A stretch of DNA of 64,000 bases from a virus (lineage: Duplodnaviria > Caudoviricetes), in IMG/VR virus record IMGVR_UViG_3300035498_000956; one strand, given 5' to 3'. The position numbers were made by a program, and so were the translations under genes. The notes beneath the pieces are model-generated. The model did not search any database. It had not been told where the DNA came from and was given only the letters and a program-made list of their open reading frames with translations. This document shows, piece after piece, positions 46,861 to 63,846 of the stretch; the stretch's first letter is position 1, and every line of letters begins with the position of its first letter.

Positions 46861-47592
46861 TGAAACCTCGTACCTATTGAGGGGCGATACCTACGCATCT
46901 ACAATCCACCCCAGAATTTTCCAAGGGGTCAGTATGCGAATGGGTGCGGAGAACTGCATAGGTGTGTTGTTTGGAGGGGTTCAACTTTTTAACCCCATCT
47001 ATTGGTTAATAGGGTCGAAAGCGGTAGACTGCGTGAAAATTGGGAGGGGTTGGTAATTCGCACTGGTGGAGATTGGAAAAATAGAGGGCGTACCTACGTT
47101 GTTACCAGAGTTTAACAGGGGCGTATCTACGTGGTTTGGCAAAAAATGGAAGGCGGGCTTATGGGCGGCTCCCAATTCTTACCATTCCTCCTGATTTTTT
47201 GGCAGTAATTGTATTTACAAACTGTTCATAATTTATTTACAGAATGTTAACACATCCGCCCGTAGAATGTGCTATAATATAGGTACAGTAAAGATAAGGA
47301 ACGCCCTAGAGGGGCAGAAAGGCAGGGGATGGAAATGTAGATACCAAGAAATGTATTAATAAAATGTTTACAATTAAGGGGTTGACTTTCTGCTCTAGAT
47401 GTGCTATAATAGAAGTACAGTAAAGGGAAAGACACCAGCGGACAGAGAGCCGACTACCAAGAAAAACCTTAATAAAATGTTTACAATTAAGGGGTTGACA
47501 AATCGGCTAGAATATGATATAATAGTATCATAGAAAAGAGATAAAAACTTGATTAAACCGCCTACTGGTTAGTGTAGGAGAAAGAGGTCTAT

Positions 47593-48132
47593 ATGGCTAA
47601 CTATGTTAATTTCACTGAAGAGATGGGTCTAACTACCAAGAACAGCACTACTGTTAAAAATAAGGCAAAGGAAATCCTTAACAAATTCATACTAGAGAAA
47701 CTAGTGGAAGAGTTTGGTATGGAAAATGTTTCTGAAGTCTTTAAGGATACAAATGGTAAAGGCTATGCAATCAGCGTAGCGGTAGGAACTGTTAATGACG
47801 AGGGCGGATTCCCTATAGAGGTATGCGTTAACGTGGAAATGACTGCCAAAGCAATAACTACCACCTCTAGGAAAACCTCTAGTGGAGTGTCAGTTACTGA
47901 CATCTACGACAGATTAACAGAAGCTGAGATATACCAAAATGAGATGGAAAAGAAAGCCAAAGAGAAAGCTGAAAAGGAAAAGGTAAAGAATGACAAAAAG
48001 GAAAAGGATGCCAAGAGAAGAGAAGAGCTAAGAATTGCCAAGGAGCAAGCCAAGGCAGAAACTGACAGAAAGCAAAAGGAACTAGAGGAAAAGGCTACCA
48101 AGGCAGAGGTTGCCAATGAGGAAGAGGAATAG
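47593..48132 (+). CDS. Four-copy family protein (copy 2)
   Basis: Near-identical core to the other copies. Confidence 0.85.
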   Translation: MANYVNFTEEMGLTTKNSTTVKNKAKEILNKFILEKLVEEFGMENVSEVFKDTNGKGYAISVAVGTVNDEGGFPIEVCVNVEMTAKAITTTSRKTSSGVSVTDIYDRLTEAEIYQNEMEKKAKEKAEKEKVKNDKKEKDAKRREELRIAKEQAKAETDRKQKELEEKATKAEVANEEEE

Positions 48133-48198
48133 ATTACCAAGGAAATAAACTGGAAAATGGAGTGGCAAGGATTACCTTGTCACTCTTTTCCATTTTCA

Positions 48199-48382
48199 TG
48201 TAATCGTTTACATGGCAAAAATTTCCTCCTAGAGGAACACTGGCAACCTCTGGAAATGTAATCGTTTACATGGTAAAAATTTCCAGGCGGCTCCACATCT
48301 TTTTTCTTTTTTCTATTGGTAAAAATTTCCTAGAGGTCCACCAGAATCTGGGAACGTAGTTATGCGGTTGTAATCGATTACA
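48199..48382. promoter_or_regulatory. Three cre/LacI-like palindromes
   Basis: TGTAATCG(T/A)TTACA at 48199, 48257 and 48369. Confidence 0.55.
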
Positions 48383-48420
48383 TGGTAAAAATTGGAAGCA
48401 ACGGGCGATACAGGTCGAGG

Positions 48421-48668
48421 TTCCAGCTCCTTCCATGGTAATGAGCTTCCAGCTCATTCAGCTCCCAGCTCCTTCCAGCTCACAGGGATGGCAACCTCTT
48501 CCAGCTCATTTGGTAATGGCAACCTTTTCCAGCTCCTAGAGGTGGTAACCTTTTCCAGCTCATTTGACTTCCAGCTCCTTCCAGCTCATTTGACTTCCAG
48601 CTCCTTCCAGCTCACAGAGCTGGCAGCTTTTTCCAGCTCATACGGTTTCCAGCTCCTTCCAGCTCATA
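48421..48668 (+). repeat. CCAGCT(C) array 2
   Basis: Dense ttccagctc units. Confidence 0.85.
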
Positions 48669-49151
48669 CGTATGGTAGAAATTTCCATGGAAATTTCCAT
48701 GGTAAACTTTTCCAATTCCTAGAGGAATTGGTAAAAATTGGAAAAGCGCGACCTGCTCTGGAAATTTTTGGTAAACCACATACCTATGTGGATTGCGACC
48801 TATTGGTAAAGATTGGTAAACCACGTACCTGTGTGTATTGGCAGAAACTGGAAACGGGCCTGATCGGCGCGGCTGGAATTTTTTGGTAAACCACATACCT
48901 GTGTGGTTTCCGACTCCCAGATTTTACCATCTGGTCGGCAATGCCTGCACCAGTGCGGTTTGGCAGAAACTGGAAGCCTGGACCCCTCTAGAGGAATACC
49001 TTATTACATAAGGTATTAATGTAGTAATGCCTTGCCAGATAAGATAACGAGATGATGTCTTACATGGTAAGACAATAGACAGACCCAATATTTTATATAA
49101 TAAGGTATTGACTATATAAAAGAATAGGGAGGGGATACTATCCCCTCTCGA

Positions 49152-49919
49152 TTACATTCCCAACTCTTGCATTGTCCTATTCAATATTGTATATAGATGA
49201 GTGCCTTTTTCTTCTTTATACCTTTTTTGTTTTTGCCTTAATGCGACTAGTAAGATTTGGTATTCATCCAGTGCATCGTACACACCTATGTGCTTTTCAA
49301 TATAATTGTTATCCCCGAATAGATACCTATATACTACCTCTTCTTTAGTTTGAATATTGCCACAAGGAGTGAGGTAATTATTGACAATGCACCAGTCTAT
49401 GTACTTCTTCTTGTTTAATTTGGTGTGGAAAATCTCCCTTTGAATGTCACACCATTGTATTTTTAATACGTCTTTAAGGTATTTCCAGCAGTCCATATTA
49501 TCCGCCATTAGTCTAAGTGTTGCGTTTTTGTCAAAGATTACGTTATATGCCCATATTTCCCCGATTTGGTATCTATCGATTAAGGCAAACAATAACTTGA
49601 TGTAGTTATCTTTTGACACTCTTTGGAACTCTCCCTTATAGTTGGGATTCTTTTCCATTTCTGATATCTCTACCGCCATTGCGTACGCAGTCATGTTGGT
49701 ACTGGTAAGGTTTTCCTCTAGGAACTCGGGGATGATTAGTGACGTTTTATAGTATATCCTATTTTTGTCACCTATTACGATACCCACGTTATATGGTCGT
49801 TTGTTGCTTGCTCCCTCGTAGTCGATAACCATGTACTTTTTAGTCTTTGGTAACTGGTGGAATGCTCTCCACTCTACGTTTCTAGTCTTTACCTCTTTGA
49901 TTACTTCTTGTACATTCAT
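49152..49919 (-). CDS. DEDDh-type 3'-5' exonuclease-like protein (copy 1)
   Basis: VIDYEG, AYNVIFD, H.GVYDALDE. Confidence 0.75.
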   Translation of the reverse strand: MNVQEVIKEVKTRNVEWRAFHQLPKTKKYMVIDYEGASNKRPYNVGIVIGDKNRIYYKTSLIIPEFLEENLTSTNMTAYAMAVEISEMEKNPNYKGEFQRVSKDNYIKLLFALIDRYQIGEIWAYNVIFDKNATLRLMADNMDCWKYLKDVLKIQWCDIQREIFHTKLNKKKYIDWCIVNNYLTPCGNIQTKEEVVYRYLFGDNNYIEKHIGVYDALDEYQILLVALRQKQKRYKEEKGTHLYTILNRTMQELGM

Positions 49920-50069
49920 TTTTATACATTCCTTTCTATTAGTCCGCCGTGGGTTCTCTCTCCCTCGACTGTACTTATATTATACCACACTACCGCCCCG
50001 ATGTCAAGAAAAAAATTGCACAAATCGAAAAAAATTTTTCGGCTGTTTTTTATGCACATTGCACAAGCG

Positions 50070-50410
50070 GGCAGTACCAGAACTTTCTAGTAATAGTACA
50101 CAAAAGTTTTCAACATTCCAAAGATTTTTTGTGCAAATTGACTACCAGATTTTAGGCGGCGAAATATACAAAGACTTTCAACATTTCCTATTGATTTTTA
50201 TGCAGAATGACTACCAGAATCTGGGTAGCAGATTAAACAAAAGTTTTCAACATTTTTTAAAATTTTTGTACAAATTGACTACCAGAATCTGGGTAGCAGA
50301 ATGTACAAAGACTTTCAACATTTCCTATTGATTTTTATGCAGAATGACTACCAGAATTTTCTAGTCAAACTATACAAAACCTAACTAAAAAGTTTGTGCA
50401 ATTTGCCTAT
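50070..50410. repeat. ~69-bp degenerate tandem repeat between divergent promoters
   Basis: gactaccaga at 50140/50209/50277/50347, each preceded by tttcaacatt. Confidence 0.75.
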
Positions 50411-50499
50411 TGCTTTTTTTGTGGGGGTGTGGTATAATATAAGTACACTAAAGGAAAGAAAGACCGCCCACTGGTACAGTGTGGGAGAAAGAGGTTCTT

Positions 50500-50733
50500 A
50501 TGAAAATCAAAGAGTTATTAACAGTAGTTGGACGTTATACCCTAGTGACTATCACTCAAGAAATAGACTATAAACCAATAGAACTATACAGAGGAGAGTC
50601 CCAGAACGTACCAAAGAGATTCTACGACTTAACAATCAATACAGTATACGCCGAGCAAGACCAATCTATATTAAACGGTTTTGACGCAAAACTGGAAATA
50701 TTAATCAATCAAGAGACACCACTAGAGGACTAA
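50500..50733 (+). CDS. MK(I/L)K-family small protein
   Basis: Cassette promoter and leader; paralog of 62276. Confidence 0.7.
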   Translation: MKIKELLTVVGRYTLVTITQEIDYKPIELYRGESQNVPKRFYDLTINTVYAEQDQSILNGFDAKLEILINQETPLED

Positions 50734-50913
50734 CAGAGATTGGTAAAATCTAGAGGGGCAACCCTCTAGAGACTACCAAAAAATGTTTTCACAAAACTTT
50801 CACAAAAAAGTACTTGACAAACGGCTTTAAAAGTGGTATAATAAATACATAAGGTAAAGGAAATAAACCAACGTAAACCGCCCACTGGTACAGTGTGGGA
50901 GAAAGAGGTCTAT

Positions 50914-51126
50914 ATGAAATTAGCAGATTTAGTTAATGTAGTAAACTATTACGAGTTCTTAAGAATAAGGGTATCCGGTGAGTACAAAAGCCGTTTTATC
51001 GGACAATGTAATGACTTAAGAGAACAAAAGCCCGACTATCTAAAAAAGGAAGTTCTTGCCGTCTTTACGTGCATAGACGAGGACTTCGGCGATGATACGC
51101 CAGTAATGGATATTTACATAGAATAA
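50914..51126 (+). CDS. MK(I/L)K-family small protein
   Basis: Cassette promoter and leader. Confidence 0.7.
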   Translation: MKLADLVNVVNYYEFLRIRVSGEYKSRFIGQCNDLREQKPDYLKKEVLAVFTCIDEDFGDDTPVMDIYIE

Positions 51127-51304
51127 CAGAAACTGGTAAAATCTAGAGGGGCATATCCCTCTAGAGACTACCAAAAAAATCCTTAATAAAATGTTTACAA
51201 TTAAAAGCTTGACTTTTTCCGCTGGATGTGTTATAATAGTATTACAGTAAAGGAAAGAAACCAAGACCACCGCCCACTGGTTAGTGTGGGAGAAAGTAGG
51301 AAAT

Positions 51305-51517
51305 ATGAAAATCAAAGACCTATTCAAGATACTAGAAAGCTACGAAACCATAGAAATTATGCAAGAGGATAATGGTATGCTATGTTGTGGGGATTGTGTT
51401 GACATATGGCACGAACACAAAGAATACCTCGAACTGGAAGTTGACTATATCTGTATTGAAATGAGCGAGGACTACCAAGAAGAACCAATACCTGTACTGG
51501 TAATCGAAGTCAAGTAG
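51305..51517 (+). CDS. MK(I/L)K-family small protein
   Basis: Cassette promoter and leader. Confidence 0.7.
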   Translation: MKIKDLFKILESYETIEIMQEDNGMLCCGDCVDIWHEHKEYLELEVDYICIEMSEDYQEEPIPVLVIEVK

Positions 51518-51844
51518 TCAACTGGTAAAATCTAGAGGGGCATATCCCTCTAGAGACTACCAAAAAAATCCTTAATAAAATGTTTACAAATAGGGGCTTG
51601 ACTTCTCCTCTTGAATGTGGTATAATAGATATAATGAAAGAGGGGGATTAAACCCCACGGAAAGAAGGCGGTTGAAATGTAGAGGGGCTGAAAAATTGGT
51701 AAAGGCTGGCTTAAAATTTGTTCACAAAATGTTTACAAATAGGGGCTTGACAAAACGGCTTAAAAGTGATATAATAGTATCATAGAGAAAAGAAAAAACA
51801 TTGATTAACCGCCCACTGGTTAGTGTGGGAGAAAGAGGAAGATT

Positions 51845-52342
51845 ATGGCAAACATGATTAACTTTACTGAAGAGATGGGTCTAACTACCAAGAACAGCAC
51901 TACTGTTAAGAATAAGGCAAAAGAAATGCTAAATGCCTTTATAATCCAAAAACTCCTAGAGGAGTATGGAGAAGAAAGCGTAAGCGAAGTATTCAAGGAT
52001 ACTAATGGAAAAGGCTATGCAATCAGCGTAGCAGTGGGGACGGTAGAAGATGAAGGCGGTTTTCCGATTGAAGTTTGTGTAAATGTGGAAATGACTGCCA
52101 AGGCAATTACTACCACTAGTCGTAAGACCTCCGCTGGTGTATCTGTTACTGACATCTACGACAGACTAACAGAGGCGGAAGTATATGCCAAATCCATCCA
52201 ATCTAAGGCGGACGAAAAAGCGAAGAAAGAAAAGGAAAAGGCTGACAAAAAGGAAAAGGATGCCAAGAGAAGAGAAGAGTTAAGGATTGCTAAAGAAAAG
52301 GCAAAGGAAGAAAGAACCAAGGAAGAGACTGGAGACTGCTAG
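51845..52342 (+). CDS. Four-copy family protein (copy 3)
   Basis: Near-identical core. Confidence 0.85.
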   Translation: MANMINFTEEMGLTTKNSTTVKNKAKEMLNAFIIQKLLEEYGEESVSEVFKDTNGKGYAISVAVGTVEDEGGFPIEVCVNVEMTAKAITTTSRKTSAGVSVTDIYDRLTEAEVYAKSIQSKADEKAKKEKEKADKKEKDAKRREELRIAKEKAKEERTKEETGDC

Positions 52343-52388
52343 TCTCCGCCCCTACTGGGGCAGATTACCAAAAGGAAGGAGTCACCAT

Positions 52389-52706
52389 ATGACAATTTGG
52401 GAGAATGAAAATCTGGAATACATTACCACTGGCGAGGGAAACTACGAAGATACGTGCATTTATAACATTTTCCAGTGGGGCGATATTGACTCTTTAATTG
52501 ACTACTGGCACAGATTTACATATGTCAAAATCGACACCGACCGAGCAAGCACATACCTATGCGGTTTGCTAGAGGGGAACGGCTTAGACAGTAACGGACT
52601 GGCAGGAGCTGGAATTTATGCATGGTTTGACCGATACAGTAAATGGGTGAGACTGAAAAAAGACAACGACTGGAACGAGTTGGTAATCAAAAAATTTTTG
52701 GAATAG
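52389..52706 (+). CDS. Hypothetical protein
   Basis: RBS AAGGAG; C-terminus resembles 55508. Confidence 0.6.
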   Translation: MTIWENENLEYITTGEGNYEDTCIYNIFQWGDIDSLIDYWHRFTYVKIDTDRASTYLCGLLEGNGLDSNGLAGAGIYAWFDRYSKWVRLKKDNDWNELVIKKFLE

Positions 52707-52750
52707 GTTGGCAGTGGTAAGGATTTCCTTACCACTTTTTTCTATTTTCA

Positions 52751-52835
52751 TGTAATCGTTTACATGGTAGACCCTACCATTTTTCTGTAATCGTTTACAT
52801 GGTAAACTTTTCCTAGAGGGGTGTAATCGTTTACA
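52751..52835. promoter_or_regulatory. Three cre/LacI-like palindromes
   Basis: TGTAATCGTTTACA at 52751, 52786 and 52822. Confidence 0.55.
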
Positions 52836-53009
52836 TGGTAAACTTTTCCTCCTAGAGGAGTTGGTAAAAATTGGAAGCGAGCGCCCATAAATTTTAGGTT
52901 TTTCCTATTGGTAAAAATTGGAAGGAGCGGGCGATCCTGGTCGAGGTTTACTCTTGGTAGAAACTGGAAAAATGCGGGTAGCCAGCCGAGCCTAGCGCCA
53001 TGGTAGGAG

Positions 53010-53262
53010 CTTCCAGCTCCTCGCCTAGAGGAGCCTTCCAGCTCCTTCCAATTTGGGAGGAGCTTCCAGCTCCTCCACTGGAAATTTTTTTCCAGCTCCT
53101 CGGGAGCTTCCAGCTCCTTCCAGCTCATCTGATGGTAAACTTTTCCAGCTCCTAGAGGAATTTCCAGCTCCTGCCAGCTCATGGAGCTGGCAGCTCCTTC
53201 CAGCTCCTTCCAGCTCCTGCCAGCTCACAGAGCTGGCAGCTCCTTCCAGCTCATGGAGCTGG
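53010..53262 (+). repeat. CCAGCT(C) array 3
   Basis: Dense ttccagctc units. Confidence 0.85.
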
Positions 53263-53709
53263 TAGAAATTTCCATGGAAATTTCCATGGTAAAAATTGGT
53301 AATGCGCGGGCCGCGCCCCTATGGTAAAAGCTGGAAGCTTGCGGCACGTACCTATGTGGTTTCTTATTGGTAGGAACTGGTAAAAGGCTTGATCAATACC
53401 TACTGGTAAACCTTACCAGTGCTAGTGCTGCAATGATCCACCCCTTCCAATTCTTACCAATAGCAGACCTCTAGAGTGCTGCACCGCCTGCTTCCAATTC
53501 TTACCAATTGATAAGCCTCTAGAGGGACCCGCCGCTGGTAAACTTTACCAGTGCCCGCCTTGAGAATTTATTGGTAATTCTTGTTAATATCAATAGGAAC
53601 AGAACAACTGGTAACCTCTAGGAGAAATTGTGAATAAATTGTGAACGTAAAATTTGGCAGAGTTTGGATGTAAAAATGTAAAGAGGGATGTAAAATCCCC
53701 CTTGTAAAA

Positions 53710-54477
53710 TTATATTGTCAATTCTGCTCTTAGTTCGTTTAATATCATGTAAAGCGGTTTTCCTTTACGTTCATTAACTCTTTTTTTCTTTTGACTTAAT
53801 GCTACTAGTAAGATTTGGTACTCGTCTAGTGCATCGTACACACCTATGTGCTTTTCTGTATAGTCGGTATTTTTAAATAAATACCTATATACGACTTCTT
53901 CTTTTGTTTGTATGTTTCCACTAGGGGTTAAGTACTGATTTTTTAAGCACCATTTTATATATTTTTGATTGTAAAGTTTGGTGTAAAATATTTCTCTTTG
54001 TATGTCGTACCATTCTATTTGATTGTCAAACACTTGCCAAAGTACAGAATTTTCACCGCCCATTAGTCTTTTAGTTGCCCCTCTATCAAAAGCCACGTTA
54101 TACGCCCATATGCCTTTGATATCATATCTGTTAACCAGTGCATAAAGTAACTTTATGCAGTCGTTAGCGGTTACCCTTGTAAACTCGTTTTTATATTGGG
54201 GGTCTTCTGCTAACTTTATTATATCCATTGCCATTGAATAAGCAGTTAGATTAGTATTGGTAAGGTTTTCCTCTAGGAACTCGGGCATTAGAATAGAACT
54301 TTTATAGTATATTCTATTCTTATCTCCTATTACTATTCCTAAGTTATATGGTCTCTTATCGCTTGCCCCTTCGTAGTCGATAACCATATACTTTTTAGTC
54401 TTTGGTAGTTTGTTAACTGCTTTCCATGTGCTGTTGATTGCCTTTACTTCTTGTAATACCTCTTGAATTTCTAACAT
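53710..54477 (-). CDS. DEDDh-type 3'-5' exonuclease-like protein (copy 2)
   Basis: VIDYEG, AYNVAFD, HIGVYDALDE; paralog of 49152..49919. Confidence 0.75.
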   Translation of the reverse strand: MLEIQEVLQEVKAINSTWKAVNKLPKTKKYMVIDYEGASDKRPYNLGIVIGDKNRIYYKSSILMPEFLEENLTNTNLTAYSMAMDIIKLAEDPQYKNEFTRVTANDCIKLLYALVNRYDIKGIWAYNVAFDRGATKRLMGGENSVLWQVFDNQIEWYDIQREIFYTKLYNQKYIKWCLKNQYLTPSGNIQTKEEVVYRYLFKNTDYTEKHIGVYDALDEYQILLVALSQKKKRVNERKGKPLYMILNELRAELTI

Positions 54478-54706
54478 TTTAATCAAACCTTCCTATTAGT
54501 TAATCTTGTCTTCGGGACTCGTTCCCTTGACTGTATTTATATTATATCATATCCCCTCTAGAAAGTCAAGAAAAAAATTGCACAAATCGAAAAAAATTTT
54601 TATCTAAAAGTTTGTGCAATTTGCCTATTGCTTTTTAGTTGGGGGTATGTTATAATATAGGTACAGTCGAGGGAGACAAAGATCAAACAGAAAGGAATTA
54701 AAAGTT

Positions 54707-54904
54707 ATGAGTAGAAAACTACAAAAGGTAGAAATACCAATCGGGAAATCAAGTCAATGGATAAAGAAAGTAACAGAACGTTACCTCTTTGAAGAGTTAT
54801 ACTGTTGCCGTGGAGTAGCAGAAAGACATAAGAAAGTAGCAAAAAAGCAACAGAAAAAACAGATACGTGCCATTGGCAAACGTTACCTTAAAGAGTGGGA
54901 CTAG
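54707..54904 (+). CDS. Small basic protein
   Basis: Own promoter and RBS. Confidence 0.6.
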   Translation: MSRKLQKVEIPIGKSSQWIKKVTERYLFEELYCCRGVAERHKKVAKKQQKKQIRAIGKRYLKEWD

Positions 54905-55056
54905 TTCCCCTCTAGGGGTTACCAAAAAAAGTTTTCACAAAACTTTCACAAAAAAATGCTTGACAAAAAGTTTTGAATGTGCTATAATATAAGTACAGTA
55001 AAGGAAAAAAACCAAATAGACCGCCTACTGGTTTAGTGTAGGAGAAAGAGGAAACT

Positions 55057-55347
55057 ATGAGAGTTAAAGCAATAATCAAGAAAATGGCAAACAACGACAT
55101 AATCGCTATCAACTGCTTATGCAAAACACAAAACGAGGTAGAAACTGACAACGAGTTCTACAACGGTACAGTCAAAGAAATGCCCAAGGAATACGGCAAA
55201 CTAAAGGTATTAAACATAACTAGCCTATACGTAGAGGACGAAGAACCCTATAGTTGCTTAGTCCTAAGCACAATTGACGATAAAGCAGTCCTCCCCGATA
55301 CATGGATAACAACAGAAAACGAGGACGAAGACGAAGATTGGGATTAA
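55057..55347 (+). CDS. MK(I/L)K-family-like small protein with an acidic tail
   Basis: Cassette unit; FYNG.VKEMPKEY..L.V. Confidence 0.7.
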   Translation: MRVKAIIKKMANNDIIAINCLCKTQNEVETDNEFYNGTVKEMPKEYGKLKVLNITSLYVEDEEPYSCLVLSTIDDKAVLPDTWITTENEDEDEDWD

Positions 55348-55507
55348 ATCCCAATCGCCCCCTCTAGGGGTTACCAAAAAAATCCTTAATAAATTGTTTA
55401 CAAATTAGGGGTTGACAAAAAGTTTTGAATGTGCTATAATATAAGTACAGTAAAGGAAATAAACCGATTGAACCGCCCACTGGTTAGTGTGGGAGAAAGA
55501 AGGAATT

Positions 55508-55894
55508 ATGAAAGAATTAACAATCTTTATGGCAAATGACGGCACTTACTTTGGTACTGCTGAAGAATGTCAAGAGTACGAAGCAATGCCAAAAGCACCA
55601 AAGAAAGACTATGAAACAATATTAAAAGGTATTACCTTTTACACCTTTGAAGGGATTATCCACCCAAAAACAATAGAAGACGTTAACGAGTGGGCGACTT
55701 ACAGTACTGCAGTAAAAATTGACAGTTACGACTCCCTCTTCTTTCTCCTTGATATTCTCGAGGAAAAAGAGTATTGGACTAGAGGCTTAGAAAGTTGCGG
55801 AATCTTCCATAAAGATAGTTTTACTAAATGGTGGATTAACGTTAATGCAGTAATAGAGGACTACACCAAATTAAAAGAAGAGTTTAACAAATAG
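55508..55894 (+). CDS. Hypothetical protein (ANDG..F...EC family)
   Basis: Cassette unit; paralog of 58559. Confidence 0.7.
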   Translation: MKELTIFMANDGTYFGTAEECQEYEAMPKAPKKDYETILKGITFYTFEGIIHPKTIEDVNEWATYSTAVKIDSYDSLFFLLDILEEKEYWTRGLESCGIFHKDSFTKWWINVNAVIEDYTKLKEEFNK

Positions 55895-56079
55895 TAAGAT
55901 TAGTAAAGATTGGTAACCCTAGAGGGGTATCCCTCTAGGAATTACCAAAAAAAATCCTTAATAAATTGTTTACAATTAAATGCTTGACAAACTAGTTTGA
56001 ATGTGCTATAATATAAGTACAGTAAAGGAAAAACCAAGACTAACCGCCCACGGGTTTCCAGTGGGAGAAAGAGGAAGTT

Positions 56080-56340
56080 ATGAGAATAAAACATATAACT
56101 GATAAAATAACAAACAGAGACTGTTATATTATCGTTGAAGTAATAACAGAAAATGGCGTTACCCCTTTAACAACACGTTTCTTACAGAATGTACCAAAAC
56201 CACATAAGGTTAAAGAGTTAAAAGTCGCCAGTATGAGAACATACTCCAATATAGAAGAAGATGGAAACGCTAGTAATGGTATAATCTTTACAGTGTTTTA
56301 CAATAAAAGAATTTTGGGGGATATGTCTCAAAATTACTAA
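56080..56340 (+). CDS. MK(I/L)K-family-like small protein
   Basis: Cassette unit. Confidence 0.65.
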   Translation: MRIKHITDKITNRDCYIIVEVITENGVTPLTTRFLQNVPKPHKVKELKVASMRTYSNIEEDGNASNGIIFTVFYNKRILGDMSQNY

Positions 56341-56477
56341 AAAATGTTTTCACAAAACTTTCACAAAAAATGCTTGACAAAAAATTTTAAATGTGCTATA
56401 ATATAAGTACAGTAAAGGAAAGAAAATAAACCAAAGATTAACCGCCCACGGGTTTACAGTGGGAGAAAGTAGGAATT

Positions 56478-57008
56478 ATGAGAAATCTAGTTAACTTTAC
56501 CGAAGAAATGTCCCTAACCACAAAGAACAGTACAACAGTAAAAAATAAGGCAAAAGAATTATTAAATGCCTTTATCCTAAGCAAACTACTAGAGGAATAC
56601 GGCGAAGAAAACGTCAGCGAGGTATTTAAAGATACCAGTGGTAAAGGCTACGCTATTAGCGTAGCAGTGGGGACGGTAGAAGATGAAGGGGGATTCCCTA
56701 TAGAAGTATGCGTCAATGTAGAAATGACGGCAAAAGCAATAACAGAAACCTCTAGAAAAACATCAAGCGGTATTTCAACCACTGAAATCTACGACAGACT
56801 AACAGAAGCGGAAGTATACGCCAAATCTGTACAATCAAAAGCAGAAGAGAAAGCCAAAAAGCAAGCAGAAAAGAACGCTAAAAAAGAAAAAGACTTGAAA
56901 AGAAGAGAAGAGTTGAAACTTGCAAAAGAAAAAGCAAAAGAGGAAACAGACAAAAAGCAAAAAGCCCTAGAGGAAAAAGCAAAAGAAAAAGCACAAGACC
57001 AAGAATAG
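56478..57008 (+). CDS. Four-copy family protein (copy 4)
   Basis: Near-identical core; followed by a terminator at 57013-57040. Confidence 0.85.
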   Translation: MRNLVNFTEEMSLTTKNSTTVKNKAKELLNAFILSKLLEEYGEENVSEVFKDTSGKGYAISVAVGTVEDEGGFPIEVCVNVEMTAKAITETSRKTSSGISTTEIYDRLTEAEVYAKSVQSKAEEKAKKQAEKNAKKEKDLKRREELKLAKEKAKEETDKKQKALEEKAKEKAQDQE

Positions 57009-57417
57009 AACCAAGGCGGTACACTGTACCGCCTTTTTATTTGGTATTTTTTCGGCGGCGAAATGCACAAAAAGAAACAAAAATTTAAATCAAAGTTTGT
57101 GTAATTTGCCTATTGATTTTCTAGTGTGGATATGGTATAATAATATTGTAATCAAGAGGAGAAAGAAAGGAGAAATGCAAAATGGTATTAATTTATATAT
57201 TACTATTTTTCTGTGTTCTATCTGTTGATACTAACAAACAGACCACAAGGAAAAGCACAAGAAAGAAAAGCAGAAAATAACTAGAGGGGTCTCCCTCTAG
57301 AGGGAGACCAAAAAAAATTTTTAAAAAATTTTTAAAAAACGCTTGACAAACTAATTTAAATGTGCTATAATATAAGTACAGTAAAGGAAAACAAAAGATT
57401 GAAAGGAAGTAATGATT

Positions 57418-57900
57418 ATGAAAACAAAAGTTTACTTTGATATGGACGGTACAATAGCAGACCTATACAACGTAGAGGACTGGTTACCAAAAATAGTAAA
57501 AGAAGAAAAAGGGGCATACCTATCGGCTAAACCTCTATTCAATCAAAGAGACCTAGAGGAGATACTAACTAAACTATTCCACAAAGGGGTAGAATTTGGG
57601 GTTATCTCATGGGGTGCAAAAAATTCTAGTACCGACTACTTAAAGCAGACCGAAAAAGAAAAAAGAACATGGTTAAAAATGTATATACCTACTCTTGAAA
57701 ATGATGTTACAGTACAACCTTATGGAACACCAAAACACATGGCAATCACTGGAAAATATGATAATATCTATCTAGTTGACGACAATGCCGAAGTATTAAC
57801 AGAATGGGAAGAAGATTCCAATAGAAAAGGGGTTAAGGTCTCCAGTACTTATGACGTAGTAATGGCACTATATGGCATTCTAGAGGAATTAGAGGGGTAA
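57418..57900 (+). CDS. HAD-superfamily phosphatase / 5'-nucleotidase-like protein
   Basis: FDMDGTIAD motif I, S, K, LVDD motif IV. Confidence 0.8.
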   Translation: MKTKVYFDMDGTIADLYNVEDWLPKIVKEEKGAYLSAKPLFNQRDLEEILTKLFHKGVEFGVISWGAKNSSTDYLKQTEKEKRTWLKMYIPTLENDVTVQPYGTPKHMAITGKYDNIYLVDDNAEVLTEWEEDSNRKGVKVSSTYDVVMALYGILEELEG

Positions 57901-58057
57901 CCCTCTAGACCTCTAGAGGAAAGCACCAAAAAAAATTTTTAAAAAATTTTTAAAAAACGCTTGACAAACTAGTTTGAATGTGTTATAATATAAGTACAGT
58001 AAAGGAAATAAACCGATTGAACCGCCCACGGGTTTACAGTGGGAGAAAGAGGAAATT

Positions 58058-58375
58058 ATGGTAAAGATGTATGTTACTAATGAGTTAGAAGTAGTTACAA
58101 TGAACATTCAACAATTCACTAAAGCAGTACTAAATAGACAACTCAAAGGAATAATCTTCCAAGACCAAGAGGAAAAGAAAAAATTCATAGAAACGATACC
58201 AGAAAGATATAAATGGAAAATCGCAAATATAACTACAGTCCTAGAGGGGTCTAATAGTCTAAAATACGGTATGATAGCGGGCGAGTACGTCCCAATTACC
58301 GAAGATAACGAAATCGTGTTCTTCAGTTGGTACAGTGCCTATAACTGTTGGGACTTTATCGGAAAAACTCGTTAA
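58058..58375 (+). CDS. Hypothetical protein
   Basis: Cassette unit. Confidence 0.65.
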   Translation: MVKMYVTNELEVVTMNIQQFTKAVLNRQLKGIIFQDQEEKKKFIETIPERYKWKIANITTVLEGSNSLKYGMIAGEYVPITEDNEIVFFSWYSAYNCWDFIGKTR

Positions 58376-58558
58376 ACCTCTAGAGGGGTCTCCCTCTAGA
58401 CCCCTAGAGGGAGACCAAAAAAATTAAAAAAAATTAAAAAAATTTTTAAAAAACGCTTGACAAACTCGTTTGAGTATGTTATAATATAAGTACAGTAAAG
58501 GAAAGAAAACAAACCAAGAGAGACCGCCCACTGGTTAGTGTGGGAGAAAGTTGGAATT

Positions 58559-58948
58559 ATGAAAAAGATAAATGCATACATGGCAAATGATGGAAGAGTA
58601 TTCACAAGCCTAATCGAGTGCTTAAAGCATGACGGAATAAAGCTACAAGCAGACAAAGACGATTGGGACGCAGAAAGCGGAATAACCGTCCTAGTTGAAG
58701 ATATGGTAATAGATACCATGACAGACGAAACACTCTACGCTCTTATGGAATACGCTCAAATAGTAAGAGTAGAGGACGAAGACAGTTACAACGCCTTAAT
58801 AGACGTACTAGACGATATTGGAAGAACCACTAAAGGACTAGACAACACCGAAGGGACAACGTTCTATTATAATGATAGATTAGGGGAATGGATATGCCTA
58901 GAGGAAATACAAACCAAAATAAAAAAGACAATGGAAAAATTAAAATAG
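58559..58948 (+). CDS. Hypothetical protein (ANDG..F...EC family)
   Basis: Cassette unit; terminator at 58951-58980. Confidence 0.7.
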   Translation: MKKINAYMANDGRVFTSLIECLKHDGIKLQADKDDWDAESGITVLVEDMVIDTMTDETLYALMEYAQIVRVEDEDSYNALIDVLDDIGRTTKGLDNTEGTTFYYNDRLGEWICLEEIQTKIKKTMEKLK

Positions 58949-59089
58949 TGAAATGGCGGTTGAACCGCCATTTTTTTTATACCTAGAGGATTACCATTTT
59001 ATACCATGGCGGCGAAATTATCTACTATTCCTATTGGTTTACTACGTCAGTATATAAAAAAAAGAGGGTGTAAAATTACACCCTCTTTA

Positions 59090-59560
59090 TTATAGATTTT
59101 TGTTAATTTCAACCACGTTATATTTTACGTTATATTCTTGCAAAATGTTTTTAATTATTTCACTTTCTTTTTTTCCTTCGCTAAACATTTCATAGTAAAA
59201 GTATTTTTTACCCTTGCATTCAACACTATTGCATATATAAGATATATTATACTTTAATAGTATTGACTCTATATCAGTAGCAGACGTTACCGAAATTTTC
59301 CATAGACTATCTTTCTTTATTGCTTCAATAATAGTTAAACTAATATATACACCAATTAAATTAGTTAAGATAGCAACTATAACAGTTGTAAGGGTATCTA
59401 ACGAAGTCAACTGCTTTAATACTATAGCATTAAAGCCATATGCAAAAGCATTAATAAATGACGCTGTTTGCTTATTTGCTTTAACAGTCAACACGGTTTT
59501 TAATGTGGATAACATCACATTAATTAAACTACATACAAAGAAAATAATTACTAATTGCAT
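59090..59560 (-). CDS. DUF5698-like membrane protein
   Basis: NVMLSTLKT.L.VK..K..A hydrophobic N-terminal half. Confidence 0.6.
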   Translation of the reverse strand: MQLVIIFFVCSLINVMLSTLKTVLTVKANKQTASFINAFAYGFNAIVLKQLTSLDTLTTVIVAILTNLIGVYISLTIIEAIKKDSLWKISVTSATDIESILLKYNISYICNSVECKGKKYFYYEMFSEGKKESEIIKNILQEYNVKYNVVEINKNL

Positions 59561-59635
59561 ATAATCACAATCCCTTCTAATATTCAATTTTCAAGATGTT
59601 TTTTCTAGAGGGGCGGTACCCCTCTAGAGTATCCT

Positions 59636-59839
59636 CTAGGAGTTTTTTAATATTTTTCCTAGATAAGTGTTATTTGCCGTTTCTTTGGCTTTCTCCCTTT
59701 GGTATTTCTTTTTTGCTATTTCTCTTTTTAGTTGCTTGTTTTCTTTTGCCTCTTGTTTTAGAGTTGCCATTAATTCTAGAAACTCCTCTTTATCAAGTTG
59801 CTTTCTTTCTCCAGTCATTTTATTAGTATACTCTACCAT
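59636..59839 (-). CDS. Small basic protein
   Basis: RBS GAAAGGTGG on the - strand; divergent promoter. Confidence 0.55.
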   Translation of the reverse strand: MVEYTNKMTGERKQLDKEEFLELMATLKQEAKENKQLKREIAKKKYQREKAKETANNTYLGKILKNS

Positions 59840-60053
59840 AAAACATCCACCTTTCTAATTATCTCTTGTTTTGTTTTATCTTATGTATATATTATACCAC
59901 GACTTTAGAAAAAAGTCAATATGGCATTATGCACAAAGTTATAGTTTAAAGTTTGTGCAATTTGACTATTGATTTTTTATTGGGGATATGCTATAATATA
60001 AGTACAGTAAAGGAAACGACAAACACAACACAATTGAAAGGATTTGATTAAGT

Positions 60054-60221
60054 ATGAAAAAGTTTGAAAAGGTTATGACAACAATAGGAATAGTAATAAT
60101 AGTGTGGGTTCTAGTCTCTTTCCTAGAGGTGAACGCCAACAACAAGATTGACGGCGGAACGCTTTCAAGTTGGAATACATTCCAAATAGTGGCAACCCTA
60201 CTACAGAAAGGGGGTTGCTAA
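60054..60221 (+). CDS. Small membrane protein (55 aa, below the ORF-track cutoff)
   Basis: MKKFEKVMTTIGIVIIVWVLVSFLEV...; promoter and RBS. Confidence 0.6.
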   Translation: MKKFEKVMTTIGIVIIVWVLVSFLEVNANNKIDGGTLSSWNTFQIVATLLQKGGC

Positions 60222-60222
60222 T

Positions 60223-60393
60223 ATGAAAAAAAGAACCGTGACTTTACGAGTTTTTCAATGTCCAACTTGTGGTGTTAAAATGGTAATGCCTAAAAAAGCA
60301 AACAGAATAACGAAGAATGGACATTTAAAAACCCTCTACTGCTACCAATGTAAAACCGACAAACAAATGGTACAGATTAGCAATTCTTACTAG
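60223..60393 (+). CDS. Zinc-ribbon protein with a bL33-like Cys pattern (56 aa)
   Basis: FQCPTCG...KNGHLKTLYCYQCK; RBS GAAAGGGGG. Confidence 0.6.
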   Translation: MKKRTVTLRVFQCPTCGVKMVMPKKANRITKNGHLKTLYCYQCKTDKQMVQISNSY

Positions 60394-60526
60394 AGGGGTA
60401 TCCCTCTAGAAGAATACCAAAAAAAATTTAAAAAATTTTAAAAAAATGCTTGACAAACTAGTTTGAATGTGGTATAATATAAGTACAGTAAAGGAAAGAA
60501 ACAAAAACCGAAAGGAAGTAATCATT

Positions 60527-60802
60527 ATGAAAAAAGTTTATGGATACGAGGAAAAAGCTGGATACTGCTACATAGTAGAACCAAGAGAGATAAAGGAAAA
60601 CTACATCTTGATTGGAACGCTATCCGAAAACTATCAACTTGTTAAAGCAGAAAGCACGCCAACTAAAATAGTAGAAGGCTTTATCTCTATGCTTAGTATC
60701 TGCTACAATGAAACAGTAATGGCAAATGGTGTAAAAGAGTCCGTGTTTAATCCACAAAAGACTTTTAAAGAAACTATCAAGAGACTAAACGAAAAAGCCT
60801 AA
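60527..60802 (+). CDS. Hypothetical protein
   Basis: Cassette promoter and RBS. Confidence 0.65.
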   Translation: MKKVYGYEEKAGYCYIVEPREIKENYILIGTLSENYQLVKAESTPTKIVEGFISMLSICYNETVMANGVKESVFNPQKTFKETIKRLNEKA

Positions 60803-60978
60803 TAGTAAAACCTCTAGAGGGGCAAACCCTCTAGAGGAATACCAAAAAAAAATTAAAAAATTTTAAAAAAATGCTTGACAAACTAGTTTGAATGTGCTAT
60901 AATATAAGTACAGTAAAGGAAAGAAACAAACTAGAGACAAACCGCCCACGGGTTACAGTGGGAGAAAGTAGGTAAATT

Positions 60979-61338
60979 ATGAAAACATATGAAATCAAGG
61001 AAATGAAAAAAAGTGTTGACTACGTAGACGGAAAAAGAGTAGTAGAGTGGGTATACATGGTGACTAGAGACTATACAGTATATCAAACAAGAGAAGACGC
61101 AAAGAAACATCTAACATATCTAAAGAGTAAACAGAATAGACAATGGAAAGCAGTTACTCAAGCATACATGGAAGACAAAATCGACTGGATAATAGAAAGA
61201 GATAACGAGGACTATATAGCAACAGTGACAAACCTAGAAACTAACGAAAGCAGTACAAGAAAATTAGAGGGGACTAAACCACACCAAAGGAAAGAAGCAG
61301 TAATACAAGCCTTTAAGGAATTAAAAATTAAAAAATAA
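60979..61338 (+). CDS. Hypothetical protein (paralog of 63430)
   Basis: KKSVDYVDGKRVVEWVYMVTRD. Confidence 0.75.
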   Translation: MKTYEIKEMKKSVDYVDGKRVVEWVYMVTRDYTVYQTREDAKKHLTYLKSKQNRQWKAVTQAYMEDKIDWIIERDNEDYIATVTNLETNESSTRKLEGTKPHQRKEAVIQAFKELKIKK

Positions 61339-61630
61339 GAGGGGCGGTACCCCTCTAGAGGGGTACCAACTTTTAAATCACTAGAGGGATACTAAATTTT
61401 ACCAACGAGCGGAATAGGGGATAGTATTTTCTACGGCTTTAATTTAGGGGATTGAAAATTTTAAACTGTTTCTCTTTTTCTCTTGATTTTTGGTAAGAAA
61501 TGTATTCACAATTTATTAAAAAAATGTTTACAATTTGTTCATTGACTTTTAGGTCAATTAGGTGTATAATATATACATAAGATAAAACAAAACAACAACC
61601 GCCCTAGAGGGGCAGAAAGTGAGTATTATT

Positions 61631-62071
61631 ATGAAATATACAGTTTATTCTCAAAAGTTTCTATCAAACCCAATCGTTGCATTAGAGACAAACGACTTAA
61701 AAGAAGTAATTGAGTATTACTTCTATTATGGTAAAAACGTTATAGAGTTTAGAAACGAACTAGACAAGGTAATCAAAAAGAATAACGACAAACAAAACCA
61801 AAAGCACCACATCAATATAAAACAATCTCGAGTTAATACTACTGGAATAGACGGCGAAAAGATAAACTTATCAATCAATACACTAATAGAAACATACGTA
61901 CAAATATATGAGTATTACCAAAAAAGTTTTACTATGAACGGAATCGAAAGAAAAATATATGAATATACACTCAAACAGATATGGAAAGTACTACCAAAAC
62001 TTGACGGCGAAATAACAGCAGTACGTAACAATCACGGTGAAATAATAGGAACGTTCGGCACGGAAAAGTAA
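61631..62071 (+). CDS. Hypothetical protein
   Basis: Cassette promoter; gccctagaggggc leader. Confidence 0.65.
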   Translation: MKYTVYSQKFLSNPIVALETNDLKEVIEYYFYYGKNVIEFRNELDKVIKKNNDKQNQKHHINIKQSRVNTTGIDGEKINLSINTLIETYVQIYEYYQKSFTMNGIERKIYEYTLKQIWKVLPKLDGEITAVRNNHGEIIGTFGTEK

Positions 62072-62275
62072 ATAAAAAAGCAACCTAGAGGAGTACTCCT
62101 CTAGGACTTGCGAAACGTTAAAAGAAAATTACTAGTATTTACCTTAATAAATTTATTAATAAATGTTCACAAATTGTTTACAATTAAAAACTTGACATTC
62201 TCTCTTGATTATGGTATAATATAATTACAGTAAAGGAAAGAAAACAAAACCAACAGAAAGGTTAAAGGTGATTGT

Positions 62276-62488
62276 ATGAAAATCAAAGAAATGTTAACAA
62301 TGGTAGGAACTCTAGAGACTATAAGCATTATAAAAGAGGTTGATTATCTCGATAAAGAAATCTATTTCGGCGGAAAAGAAAAAATGCCCAAAGAATACCA
62401 AGACCTAGAGGTGCGACAAATACGAGCAGTCGCAACAGAGGTCTACCAATCAGAAGACTTGATTACCTTAGAAATAATAACGAAATAA
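62276..62488 (+). CDS. MK(I/L)K-family small protein
   Basis: Paralog of 50500; terminator at 62490-62520. Confidence 0.7.
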   Translation: MKIKEMLTMVGTLETISIIKEVDYLDKEIYFGGKEKMPKEYQDLEVRQIRAVATEVYQSEDLITLEIITK

Positions 62489-62822
62489 AAAAGAGGTGGG
62501 AGAAATCCCACCTCTTTTTATTACTTTAGAACTAACAAAAATTACCATCTGCTGAAAGCCTAGAGGGAAATTTAAAATTTCCATCTCCTACCATCCCTAG
62601 AGGAGCGAAAAAAATTTTTCTTATTATCACTGTGGAATTAACAAAAATTGGAAGCAAGCGGTCCTAAAGGAGCGGTCCTAGAGGAGCACGATTTATCGCT
62701 TTAGTGTGCTAAAGCGTCGCCCGATCGGCGGCCAGGATCAGCCGCCAGTGCTGGGACTGGTAAGCTCTACCAGCCAGCGGCGCGGCAGCGCTCCGCCGTG
62801 AGCCTAGGCCACGGAGCACCGC

Positions 62823-62912
62823 TCACGAGCTGGAAAAAATTTTCCAGCTCCTCGCAGCTCCAGCTCCTCGCAGCTCCTCTAGGAGCTTCCAGCTCCTTCC
62901 AGCTCCAGCTCA
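62823..62912 (+). repeat. CCAGCT(C) array 4
   Basis: ccagctcc units. Confidence 0.75.
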
Positions 62913-63033
62913 TTTACCAATTTTCTGGAAATGGTAATGTTTTCCAGAATTGGAAAAAAATTTCCAATTTTCAATTGGAAATTTCTACCAGTATGCGGAG
63001 TTGTCAAAATTGGCATCTTATACCAATTTTGAA

Positions 63034-63204
63034 CTGTACTAGTCACCATAGAACAGTGCTGTACTAGTCACCATAGAACAGTGCTGTACTAGTCACCATA
63101 GAACAGTGCTGTACTAGTTGCCGTAGAACAGTGCTGTACTAGTTGCCGTAGAACAGTGCTGTACTAGTTGCCGTAGAACAGTGCTGTACTAGTTGCCGTA
63201 GAAC
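63034..63204. repeat. 25-bp tandem repeat, about 7 copies in two variants
   Basis: ctgtactagtcaccatagaacagtg x3, then ctgtactagttgccgtagaacagtg x3 plus a partial copy. Confidence 0.95.
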
Positions 63205-63429
63205 GGCTGACTGTATACTATTATAGTCTAAATTTAACCCCTTATACTATTATAATAGTATAAAACCAACAGAAAAAACGTTCATAATTTTTTAATTGAT
63301 TGTTAACAAATTGTTTACAATTAAAATGTTGACATTTCCGCCCTAGTATGCTATAATGTAAGTACAGTAAAGGAAACAAACCAAAGACTAAACCGCCCAC
63401 TGGTACAGTGTGGGAGAAAGTAGGAAATT

Positions 63430-63801
63430 ATGAAAACAATAGGAACAGTAAGCGAAATCAAAGAGTTTAAGAAAAGCGTTGACTACGTAGACGGCAAAAG
63501 AGTCGTAGAGTGGGTATACATGGTGACTAGGGACTGTAAAATGTTCTCTACAAGAGAAGAAGCAAAAAAACACCTAAGATACCTAAAGGATAAGCAAGCA
63601 AGACAATGGAAGAAAGTCACCAAAGCATACATGGAAGACAAAATCGACTGGATAATCCTCCCCGAACATGACTACCACTTTACAGTGGTAACAAACCTAG
63701 AAACTAACGAAAAAGGCTGGTGCAAGCTAGAAGGCACTAAACCATATCAACGAAAAGAGGCAATAATAAAAGCCTTTAAGGAATTAAACATTAAGGACTA
63801 A
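63430..63801 (+). CDS. Hypothetical protein (paralog of 60979)
   Basis: Cassette unit. Confidence 0.75.
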   Translation: MKTIGTVSEIKEFKKSVDYVDGKRVVEWVYMVTRDCKMFSTREEAKKHLRYLKDKQARQWKKVTKAYMEDKIDWIILPEHDYHFTVVTNLETNEKGWCKLEGTKPYQRKEAIIKAFKELNIKD

Positions 63802-63804
63802 AGA

Positions 63805-63840
63805 AAAAAGCGTATTTCGTAAGAAATACGCTTTTTTTTC
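63805..63840 (+). terminator. Intrinsic terminator (likely bidirectional)
   Basis: aaaaagcgtatttc/gaaatacgcttttt. Confidence 0.8.
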
Positions 63841-63846
63841 GCCCGT

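Follow-up and report, generated by a model that had tools for sequence, protein, structure and literature searches.

A row of putative early-gene cassettes in an uncultured large phage, probably reshuffled between its repeated control units and saturated with an apparently lineage-specific heptamer

The last ~19 kb of a 64,000-nucleotide stretch of viral DNA (Duplodnaviria; Caudoviricetes; IMG/VR record IMGVR_UViG_3300035498_000956), which in its full length we call the window, hold a row of small early-type genes, mostly without a known family and each with its own strong host-type promoter. Here we describe this gene-cassette array, the palindromes built from the heptamer CTAGAGG that end many of its genes, and the differences in cassette content among related phages. 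The G+C content of the window is ~33%, its genes lie almost all on the + strand, and the phage-type functions identifiable in it are an endolysin, a helicase, a polynucleotide kinase, and an RNA ligase; exact-protein look-ups recovered its genes also from contigs as long as 158 kb. Promoters and ribosome sites point to a host that is probably a Bacillota bacterium. Searches of cultured-phage records with 54.5 to 61.4 kb (megablast, blastn) and with two proteins (tblastn) returned only A/T-rich chance hits, a search for related loci with two cassette proteins gave no match, every Rfam match in 43 to 64 kb fell under the gathering score, and no tRNAs were found in that interval. The array forms four or five operon-like blocks, each opened by a promoter with a weaker −35 element and closed by a canonical terminator, with consensus promoters and U-less CTAGAGG palindromes between the genes inside. 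The block-opening promoters at 50410, 54628, 57113, and 59969 each lie behind a AAAGTTTGTGCAATTTGCC box.

An initial annotation, made from the sequence alone, had described TTGACA-17-TATAAT and a leader hairpin with a ribosome site as recurring before the genes, and both were recovered. Perfect (12/12) promoters occur at 15 sites in 44.5 to 64 kb, 14 of them on the + strand, against a chance expectation of ~0.015 (mononucleotide estimate); nearly all carry a TG extension, and 18 + strand promoters matching at 11/12 or better lie between 47.3 and 63.4 kb. Most promoters are accompanied by the start-site string AAGTACAGTAAAGGAAA, most run on as ATAAGTACAGTAAAGGAAA, and AAGTACAG is present in 13 copies in 44 to 64 kb versus none in 1 to 43 kb. 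Promoter-upstream elements are of three kinds: (c)cttaataaa(a/t)tgtttacaa, ttttcacaaaactttcacaa, and phased A/T tracts. The leader hairpin, (A)CCG-CCNAC-loop(8-9)-GTNGG with a 5-bp stem, abuts AGAAAG(A/T)(G/A)GG and the ATG; the window holds 15 copies, 13 in the cassette region and two in class-I units upstream. Over 18 copies, the middle pair of the stem is C:G in 11, A:U in three, U:A in three, and G:C in one and is always paired; none of 500 shuffles reached this covariation score, and a one-column shift of the partner left ~32% pairing. Because the covariation of the middle pair beats both the shuffles and the column slide, the leader stem is a real, selected RNA structure, and its loops are conserved too. 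Pattern scans of metagenome contigs, one for the palindrome unit and one for the leader hairpin, and of viral contigs for the leader found nothing. A second promoter family, with ~12 copies, was seen at 16436-45708, in the kinase-rich 16- to 46-kb region; it reads (A)GTTGAAAaa-N-TATGaTATAAT and then (T)ATAGTAAATGAGA, with TTGAAA at −35 and TAGTAAATGAGA after the −10.

Twelve CTAGAGG palindromes with perfect stems of 8 to 13 bp (20 to 40 bp overall and near-perfect) start 0 to 24 nt past a stop codon, and mini palindromes of the form CCCC-TCTA-GGGG end two more genes (54907 and 55358). All nine palindromes located by the initial annotation are real, and its count of about 20 is fair if those in non-coding arrays are included; nesting in TGGTA...TACCA, described as frequent, holds at 50749, 51142, 51531, and 55918. 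Folding energies of the palindromes range from −17 to −28 kcal/mol (z, −2.8 to −7.0). Their reported lack of + strand U-tracts is true of most, with 0 to 2 T in the 12 nt 3' of the hairpin, but not of 61346, with 5, or of 57288 and 59604, with 4. Ten are followed by 7 to 10 A in the next 12 nt, and on the − strand five have TTTT directly after the hairpin. Nor do palindromes end every gene, as had been supposed, since seven + strand genes end instead in canonical hairpin-plus-T-run terminators (46321/46354, 48159, 52713, 57013, 58951, 62488, and 63804). None of the 12 palindromes combines a G+C-rich hairpin with an immediate T-run, whereas these seven other hairpins do. By sequence, the palindromes appear not to be intrinsic terminators, and U-less termination is unlikely because the region uses proper terminators where blocks end. 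Copies of the heptamer on the + strand are followed within 30 nt by a − strand copy 14 times, compared with ~3 estimated for random placement. Only AG and CT were found as spacers in CCT-NN-AGG, which excludes a symmetric dimer site and makes the word truly asymmetric. N4-type hairpin promoters were set aside because the palindromes occur in both polarities.

We compared the window with nine contigs from separate samples (obtained by exact-protein look-ups), an intermediate relative (L037), and three complete sister genomes. Across the nine contigs and L037, relatives differ by whole cassettes that are inserted, deleted, duplicated, moved, or replaced. Five samples hold type 1, which is 99.97 to 100% identical to the window, and four hold type 2, with aligned blocks 96 to 99% identical. 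Type 2 has an extra cassette of ~386 bp, complete with box, promoter, covarying leader hairpin, 69-aa family-B paralogue, and palindrome, that has an identical 45-bp TGGTAAAATCTAGAGGGGCATATCCCTCTAGAG(A/G)CTACCAAAAAA palindrome/A-run unit on either side. Another extra cassette, of 631 bp, encodes a 170-aa paralogue of the gene at 61631 and is joined to its surroundings within the stretch of leader hairpin and ribosome site, outside the palindromes. The cassette at 51305-51517 has a divergent type 2 allele (40 differences in 400 bp) in a near-identical background. L037 follows the same cassette grammar as the window but is without six cassettes (55057-58057) and two cassettes (60527-61338); it holds three genes that the window does not, the 57053-57390 unit sits elsewhere in it, and adjacent L037 genes are 46 to 100% identical to those of the window, forming a mosaic. 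For the six-gene difference, the junction was placed between leader hairpin and ATG, and for the two-gene difference, in the CTAGAGGGGTA(T/C)C palindrome. All four junctions read thus fall inside repeated units: the leader and ribosome site hold two, and the other two lie in the palindrome/A-run unit, the palindrome having been offered by the initial annotation as a possible crossover site. Fixed gene order among relatives, which would have spoken against shuffling, was not seen: content varies, even though the shared cassettes are almost collinear. Small contigs were considered as excised circles and rejected; they end or break at repeats and have no circular signature.

In the sister genomes, the same promoter and start-site string occur in one ~13-kb, one-strand cluster with one promoter per gene, and a collinear backbone carries cassettes that are present or absent. 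These phages have no CTAGAGG at all; their early module contains TTATTCATAA...TTATGAATAA palindromes and GTTCATA words in weaker excess, about half of its gene ends are without a hairpin, and none has a hairpin plus A-run. Because the sister phages share the promoters but not the heptamer, the palindromes would seem to be a lineage-specific overlay on a conserved cassette architecture and not a requirement of it.

Since junctions fall both in the palindrome/A-run unit and in the leader/ribosome site, exchange appears to be homologous, between dispersed repeats, and not site specific. We consider it likely that this early-gene module is reshuffled by homologous exchange between its control units. 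The region would be a hyperplastic immediate-early ("host-takeover" type) module of an uncultured ~158-kb phage, with a control unit that can be written as [hairpin] - [A-run or TTTACAA/TTTCACAA box] - sigma-A promoter - start-site string - leader hairpin - ribosome site - small open reading frame (ORF). Such units would act as near-identical 45- to 150-bp repeats for ordinary homologous recombination, and because they are near-identical repeats, whole self-expressing genes could be inserted, deleted, duplicated, moved, or replaced. No site-specific recombinase would be needed, and a phage Sak4-type annealase, seen in the sister genomes only, may contribute. The recombination-shuffled library of self-expressing genes that was first proposed is borne out in that the strains and L037 differ by cassettes, with junctions in control units, and in that 17 of the 20 cassette proteins scanned have no PHROG family. 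Several points weigh against this reading. The comparison was limited to two lineages and three sister genomes; the scan for recombinases covered 20 window proteins and the sister genomes; both read-through at the palindromes and early timing are things we infer; and repeat-rich DNA can be misassembled, although each arrangement recurs in 4 to 5 independent samples.

The closest parallel is found in T4-like phages, whose promoter-early stem-loop (PeSL) cassettes place a strong sigma-70-like promoter and a stem-loop between ORFans in hyperplastic regions (Arbiol et al. 2010, PMC2839356; Comeau et al. 2014, PMC4122927). Crossovers at PeSLs fall between the −10 and the ATG, between the ribosome site and the −10, or in the stem-loop unit, short patches of homology suffice, and no dedicated recombinase is known; the stem-loop consensus is lineage specific (a G-run/C-run in RB49), and the RB49 stem-loops are terminators (PMC2839356, PMC4122927). 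Likewise, the array joins stem-loops and near-consensus promoters into composites between ORFan genes (18 + strand promoters, 12 palindromes, and two minis), close relatives vary by whole genes with junctions within the repeated units, and the stem-loop is lineage specific. It differs in that the phage was not T4-like in any test made and has Bacillota-type signals, its stem-loops have no T-run and are followed by A-runs, the unit adds a start-site string and a covarying 5-bp leader hairpin, and the stem word is dense throughout the domain, in coding DNA as well. The array thus appears to work as PeSLs do, outside the T4-like group in which they were defined; we do not file it as a T4-like PeSL member because no DNA or protein match to cultured phage records was found in the queries tried. 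This would extend PeSL-style building and reshuffling of an early repertoire from T4-like phages of Gram-negative bacteria to an uncultured large phage with Bacillota-type signals, with natural strain variants that capture cassette exchanges in progress, and the array would be a source of candidate host-takeover or anti-defense genes, each prepackaged with a strong promoter.

CTAGAGG itself is not restricted to the palindromes, which are its inverted pairs. The window has 60 copies on the + strand and 37 on the − strand, where ~3 per strand are expected, and all but 3 lie beyond 44.8 kb; counted on both strands, 43 to 64 kb hold 94 copies and the first 43 kb two, the latter both on the − strand. 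Likewise, CCTAGAGG has 35 copies in the domain and none in the first 43 kb. The word reaches into genes through codon choice: Leu-Glu-Gxx is written CTA-GAG-G in 18 of 24 cases in the domain versus 1 of 27 in the first 43 kb, and ~3 would be predicted from codon usage; these 18 in-frame copies are in unrelated genes, and the tripeptide itself is three times more common in the domain. Antisense coding opportunities ([SPTA]-Ser-[Ser/Arg]) are used in 4 of 7 cases in the domain and in 0 of 23 in the first 43 kb. Copies of the word were intact in L037 at 22 of 32 sites, compared with 42% of background 7-mers (p, 0.002); individual coding copies turn over, yet L037 keeps the density, with 45 copies in 11.8 kb. 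Positional clustering within genes was rejected on test. No second phage saturated with CTAGAGG was found in IMG/VR, and the 14 hits of a viral-contig scan for CTAGAGGGG-N-CCCTCTAG were single and unrelated. Avoidance of Type III restriction was set aside because inverted pairs abound, as were decoys of BREX sites, since to our knowledge CTAGAGG fits no BREX motif. We read CTAGAGG as what may be a lineage-specific recognition word.

Most likely, a sequence-specific protein reads CTAGAGG on the DNA across the domain, and the RNA hairpins would serve secondarily as intercistronic 3' barriers. Reading at the DNA level is favored because the word is selected for density, is used in both orientations and in both palindrome polarities, occurs in non-coding arrays, and is specific to the lineage. 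Set against this are the origin of the antisense coding copies, which stem from ~two independent sites in one paralogue family, the + strand bias of solitary copies (36 versus 13), and an enrichment at the amino acid level that concerns the Leu-Glu-Gxx tripeptide only; a reader at the RNA level would explain the strand bias and the tripeptide-only enrichment better. Only tentatively do we suggest, further, that (C)CTAGAGG is a domain mark for the 19.5-kb immediate-early hyperplastic domain, genes included, that is read by a lineage-specific phage factor. Such a mark could serve domain-wide early-to-middle silencing, protection from phage or host nucleases (Chi-like), or stimulation of cassette-shuffling recombination. 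Among the products of the domain are two to three DEDDh-exonuclease-like proteins and one that is deoxyribonucleotidase-like, a set that recalls T5 pre-early functions. A seven-letter word selected for density in one genome domain, even against codon and amino acid choice, would be a new element and points to a sequence-specific reader that acts on the early region.

The initial annotation had also called the array integron-like, which would require a dedicated recombinase to excise and insert cassettes at the palindromes, as attC-type sites. Integrons have a tyrosine recombinase, IntI, beside the array, an attI site, and promoterless cassettes that are transcribed from a shared promoter, Pc; attC sites are imperfect palindromes of 57 to 141 bp with conserved outer core sites, and the crossover point in them is fixed. 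The array does resemble one in that its single-gene units stand in a row, with imperfect palindromes at the cassette boundaries, content that varies between relatives, and two of four junctions in palindromes. Here, however, each cassette brings a promoter with it; the palindromes measure 20 to 40 bp, with perfect stems of 8 to 13 bp, unlike attC; crossover points are not fixed, leader/ribosome-site junctions being as frequent; and sister phages shuffle cassettes without these palindromes. None of the 20 window proteins scanned has a Phage_integrase domain. Consistent with the initial annotation, which had seen no recombinase in the window, the scanned window ORFs and the three complete sister genomes yielded no tyrosine or serine recombinase, and the sister genomes had no match to Phage_integrase, Resolvase, RecA, RecT, or ERF. 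We regard the integron-like explanation as largely refuted and very improbable. All three sister genomes have an AAA_24 (Sak4-like) gene, intact in one (G003:C1:88944-89537) and in two pieces ~1.1 kb apart in the others (G001:C1:46078-47766 and G002:C1:149854-151521), where the split may reflect an intron, an intein, or an inserted gene.

Two other explanations concern the palindromes and the word themselves. The palindromes might act at the RNA level only, blocking 3'-exonucleases or marking processing sites in read-through early transcripts, with CUAGAGG as an RNA tag that might, for example, direct an endoribonuclease to early messages for their removal; T4 RegB is an endoribonuclease that acts on early messages at GGAG. 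Stable hairpins 0 to 24 nt past stop codons, a hairpin plus A-run that tracks the direction of transcription (the reverse operon at 59604 included), the sense bias of coding copies (19 versus 4) as well as solitary ones, and canonical terminators at block ends only would all fit. Use of the antisense coding opportunities does not, nor do the presence of the word in both arms, the two palindrome polarities, its frequency in non-coding arrays, and the absence of an Rfam match, and we view a purely RNA-level role as less likely but as a serious alternative. Placement directly after stop codons could also mean that the palindromes are unusual terminators (U-less or factor dependent) whose shared sequence stems only from copying by recombination, as PeSL stem-loops terminate in RB49 and five palindromes carry the − strand TTTT. 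This is unlikely: the + strand mostly has 0 to 2 T in the next 12 nt in a region that possesses seven canonical T-run terminators, about half of sister-phage gene ends have no hairpin at all, and copying fails to explain 18 in-frame coding copies in unrelated genes. Reading of the word on DNA by a protein stays our preferred explanation.

Two further systems bear comparison. The SPO1 host-takeover module, found in a large phage of a Gram-positive host, is organized into short units, each served by strong ribosome sites and by promoters that the host RNA polymerase uses strongly. It is a 26-gene cluster in the terminal region (PMC6873191). The array resembles it in its dense small early-type genes, mostly unassigned in function, its strong sigma-A promoters, and its strong ribosome sites, but searches of the phage database revealed no sequence similarity, and we know of no domain-wide heptamer in SPO1. 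The DNA uptake sequences (DUS and USS) of Neisseria and Haemophilus are genome-wide and serve uptake by the competence machinery. By analogy only, CTAGAGG is like them a short asymmetric word that is selected for density, enters genes via particular codons, forms inverted-pair hairpins after genes, and turns over at individual sites; it differs in being limited to a 19.5-kb phage domain.

The features of the domain are collected in Table 1. Among its proteins, the HAD-type 160-aa protein matches phrog_2643 (5'-3' deoxyribonucleotidase; E, 5e-7), the zinc-ribbon protein is phrog_1257, and the two reverse-strand 255-aa paralogues are phrog_20187; Pfam gave only weak hits on ten cassette proteins, and a PDB sequence search with the HAD-like and exonuclease-like proteins gave none. 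For the 255-aa paralogues, a language model and structure look-up suggest RNase T/DEDDh exonucleases, as a lead only. This widespread phage protein has three diverged paralogues here (49152-49919 and 53710-54477, both on the − strand, and a 210-aa gene past the window in L040); DxE, NxxFD, and Hx4D motifs are visible by eye, and the nearest named look-alikes are RNase T-family exonucleases. Family A has four genes, family B has four or five, and three more families occur as pairs. Family-A genes lie at 45777-46334, 47593-48132, 51845-52342, and 56478-57008, with others in L025 (5730-5330 and 3690-3315, − strand); the proteins have a conserved ~110-aa core and a variable Lys/Glu-rich tail and are retained as far as the sister lineage. 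They had no Pfam or PHROG match, and the Atlas model was poor (pLDDT, 0.53). The empty cassettes, which have a consensus promoter and a leader resembling a ribosome site, look like remnants left by cassette deletion or like small regulatory RNAs.

Table 1. Features of the CTAGAGG-rich domain, in window coordinates
Feature	Coordinates	Strand	Remarks
CTAGAGG-rich, class-II-promoter domain	44880..64000	.	Runs on to ~64335 past the window; stops after CCTAAG array
Two "empty" cassettes, promoter and start-site string	47220..47494	+	Lack a real ORF; in the first, leader hairpin with CTAGAGG and mini-frame ATG-GAA-ATG-TAG (47330-47345)
Cassette, 179-aa family-A gene	47495..48132	+	Leader hairpin 47561-47578; terminator 48159-48186
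Reverse unit R1, 255-aa RNase T/DEDDh-exonuclease-like gene	49152..50007	-	Promoter 50007-49979
Block-leading TTGCTT-17-TATAAT, leader hairpin, 77-aa family-B gene	50410..50733	+	Behind AAAGTTTGTGCAATTTGCC box
CTAGAGG palindrome	50749..50770	+	9-bp stem inside TGGTA/TACCA; A-run 3'
Cassette, promoter, leader hairpin, 70-aa gene	50814..51126	+	TTTCACAA boxes
CTAGAGG palindrome and A-run	51142..51165	+	
Cassette, 70-aa gene	51209..51517	+	Divergent allele in type 2 strains
CTAGAGG palindrome and A-run	51531..51554	+	Crossover site of type 2 extra 69-aa cassette
Empty cassette, promoter	51598..51746	+	Then start-stop ATGTAG 51677-51682
Cassette, leader hairpin, 165-aa family-A gene, 105-aa gene	51747..52736	+	Canonical terminator 52713-52736
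Reverse unit R2, 255-aa exonuclease-like gene	53710..54569	-	Promoter with CTAGAGG in spacer
Block-leading promoter, basic 65-aa gene	54628..54904	+	
Mini palindrome CCCCTCTAGGGG plus TTACCAAAAAAA	54907..54918	+	
Cassette, 96-aa gene	54960..55347	+	Leader/ribosome site 55024-55056 is left junction of six-gene L037 difference
Mini palindrome and A-run	55358..55370	+	
Cassette, 128-aa gene	55412..55894	+	
CTAGAGG palindrome and A-run	55918..55939	+	
Cassette, 86-aa gene	55984..56340	+	No 3' hairpin
Cassette, 176-aa family-A gene	56374..57035	+	Canonical terminator 57013-57035
Block-leading promoter, 32-aa hydrophobic-basic ORF	57113..57280	+	Unit placed differently in L037
Double overlapping CTAGAGG palindrome and A-run	57281..57309	+	
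Cassette, 160-aa HAD-type gene	57343..57900	+	Phased A-tracts upstream
Compound palindrome and A-run	57888..57919	+	
Cassette, 105-aa gene	57961..58375	+	Leader/ribosome site is right junction of six-gene L037 difference
Compound 13-bp CTAGAGG palindrome and A-run	58377..58416	+	
Cassette, 129-aa gene	58457..58973	+	Canonical terminator 58951-58973
Reverse operon: promoter, 67-aa gene, palindrome 59604-59628, 156-aa membrane protein	59090..59919	-	Terminator 59088-59061; A-run of palindrome on - strand
Block-leading promoter, 55-aa membrane ORF, 56-aa zinc-ribbon ORF (phrog_1257)	59969..60393	+	Stop TAG sits within CTAGAGG
CTAGAGG palindrome and A-run	60390..60409	+	Left junction of two-gene L037 difference
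Cassette, 91-aa gene	60450..60802	+	
11-bp CTAGAGG palindrome and A-run	60811..60837	+	
Cassette, 119-aa family-C gene	60875..61338	+	Leader/ribosome site 60945-60984 is junction of type 2 170-aa cassette
Palindrome GGTACCCCTCTAGAGGGGTACC	61338..61367	+	Right junction of two-gene L037 difference
Cassette, 146-aa gene	61542..62071	+	Leader hairpin GCCC-TAGA-GGGGC contains CTAGAGG
11-bp palindrome CCTAGAGGAGTACTCCTCTAGG	62084..62105	+	No T-run on +; T-run follows on -
Cassette, 70-aa family-B gene	62192..62519	+	Canonical terminator 62488-62519
Cassette, 123-aa family-C gene	63329..63837	+	Canonical terminator 63804-63837

Several other repeats lie between the genes. Strongly polarized non-coding (T)TCCAGCTC(C/A) arrays were found at 46420-46870, 48390-48700, 53000-53260, and 62830-62910, three of the four preceded by a family-A gene; TCCAGCTC has 41 copies in 44 to 64 kb and none in 1 to 43 kb and is often joined to the CTAGAGG word, as TCCAGCTCCTAGAGG. 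Copies of TGTAATCG(T/A)TTACA occur in two groups of three (48205-48390 and 52750-52840), each followed by TGGTAAA and often by CTAGAGG; we take them to fit the consensus of the Bacillota catabolite-responsive element (CcpA cre). At the end of the domain, an irregular ~500-bp array of CCTAAG, CAGTA(C/G)C, and GTACCCTAGAGGTACC modules occupies 63840-64000 and extends to ~64335 in L040, and a 62-kb contig crosses it into a promoter and the 210-aa exonuclease-like gene. Upstream of the domain, the gene at 38771-40189 strongly matches the BREX Lon-like ATPase BrxL (BrxL_ATPase; E, 5e-98; plus BrxL_N). A 275-aa winged-helix-like protein is encoded at 44140-44967. Finally, an inverted repeat, TTGCACAAA ... 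TTTGTGCAA, flanks the divergent promoters of exonuclease-like genes and block-leading units at 50010-50440 and 54570-54660 and may be an operator; in L026, a more distant relative, words of the TGCACAA type rank first among the 7-mers.

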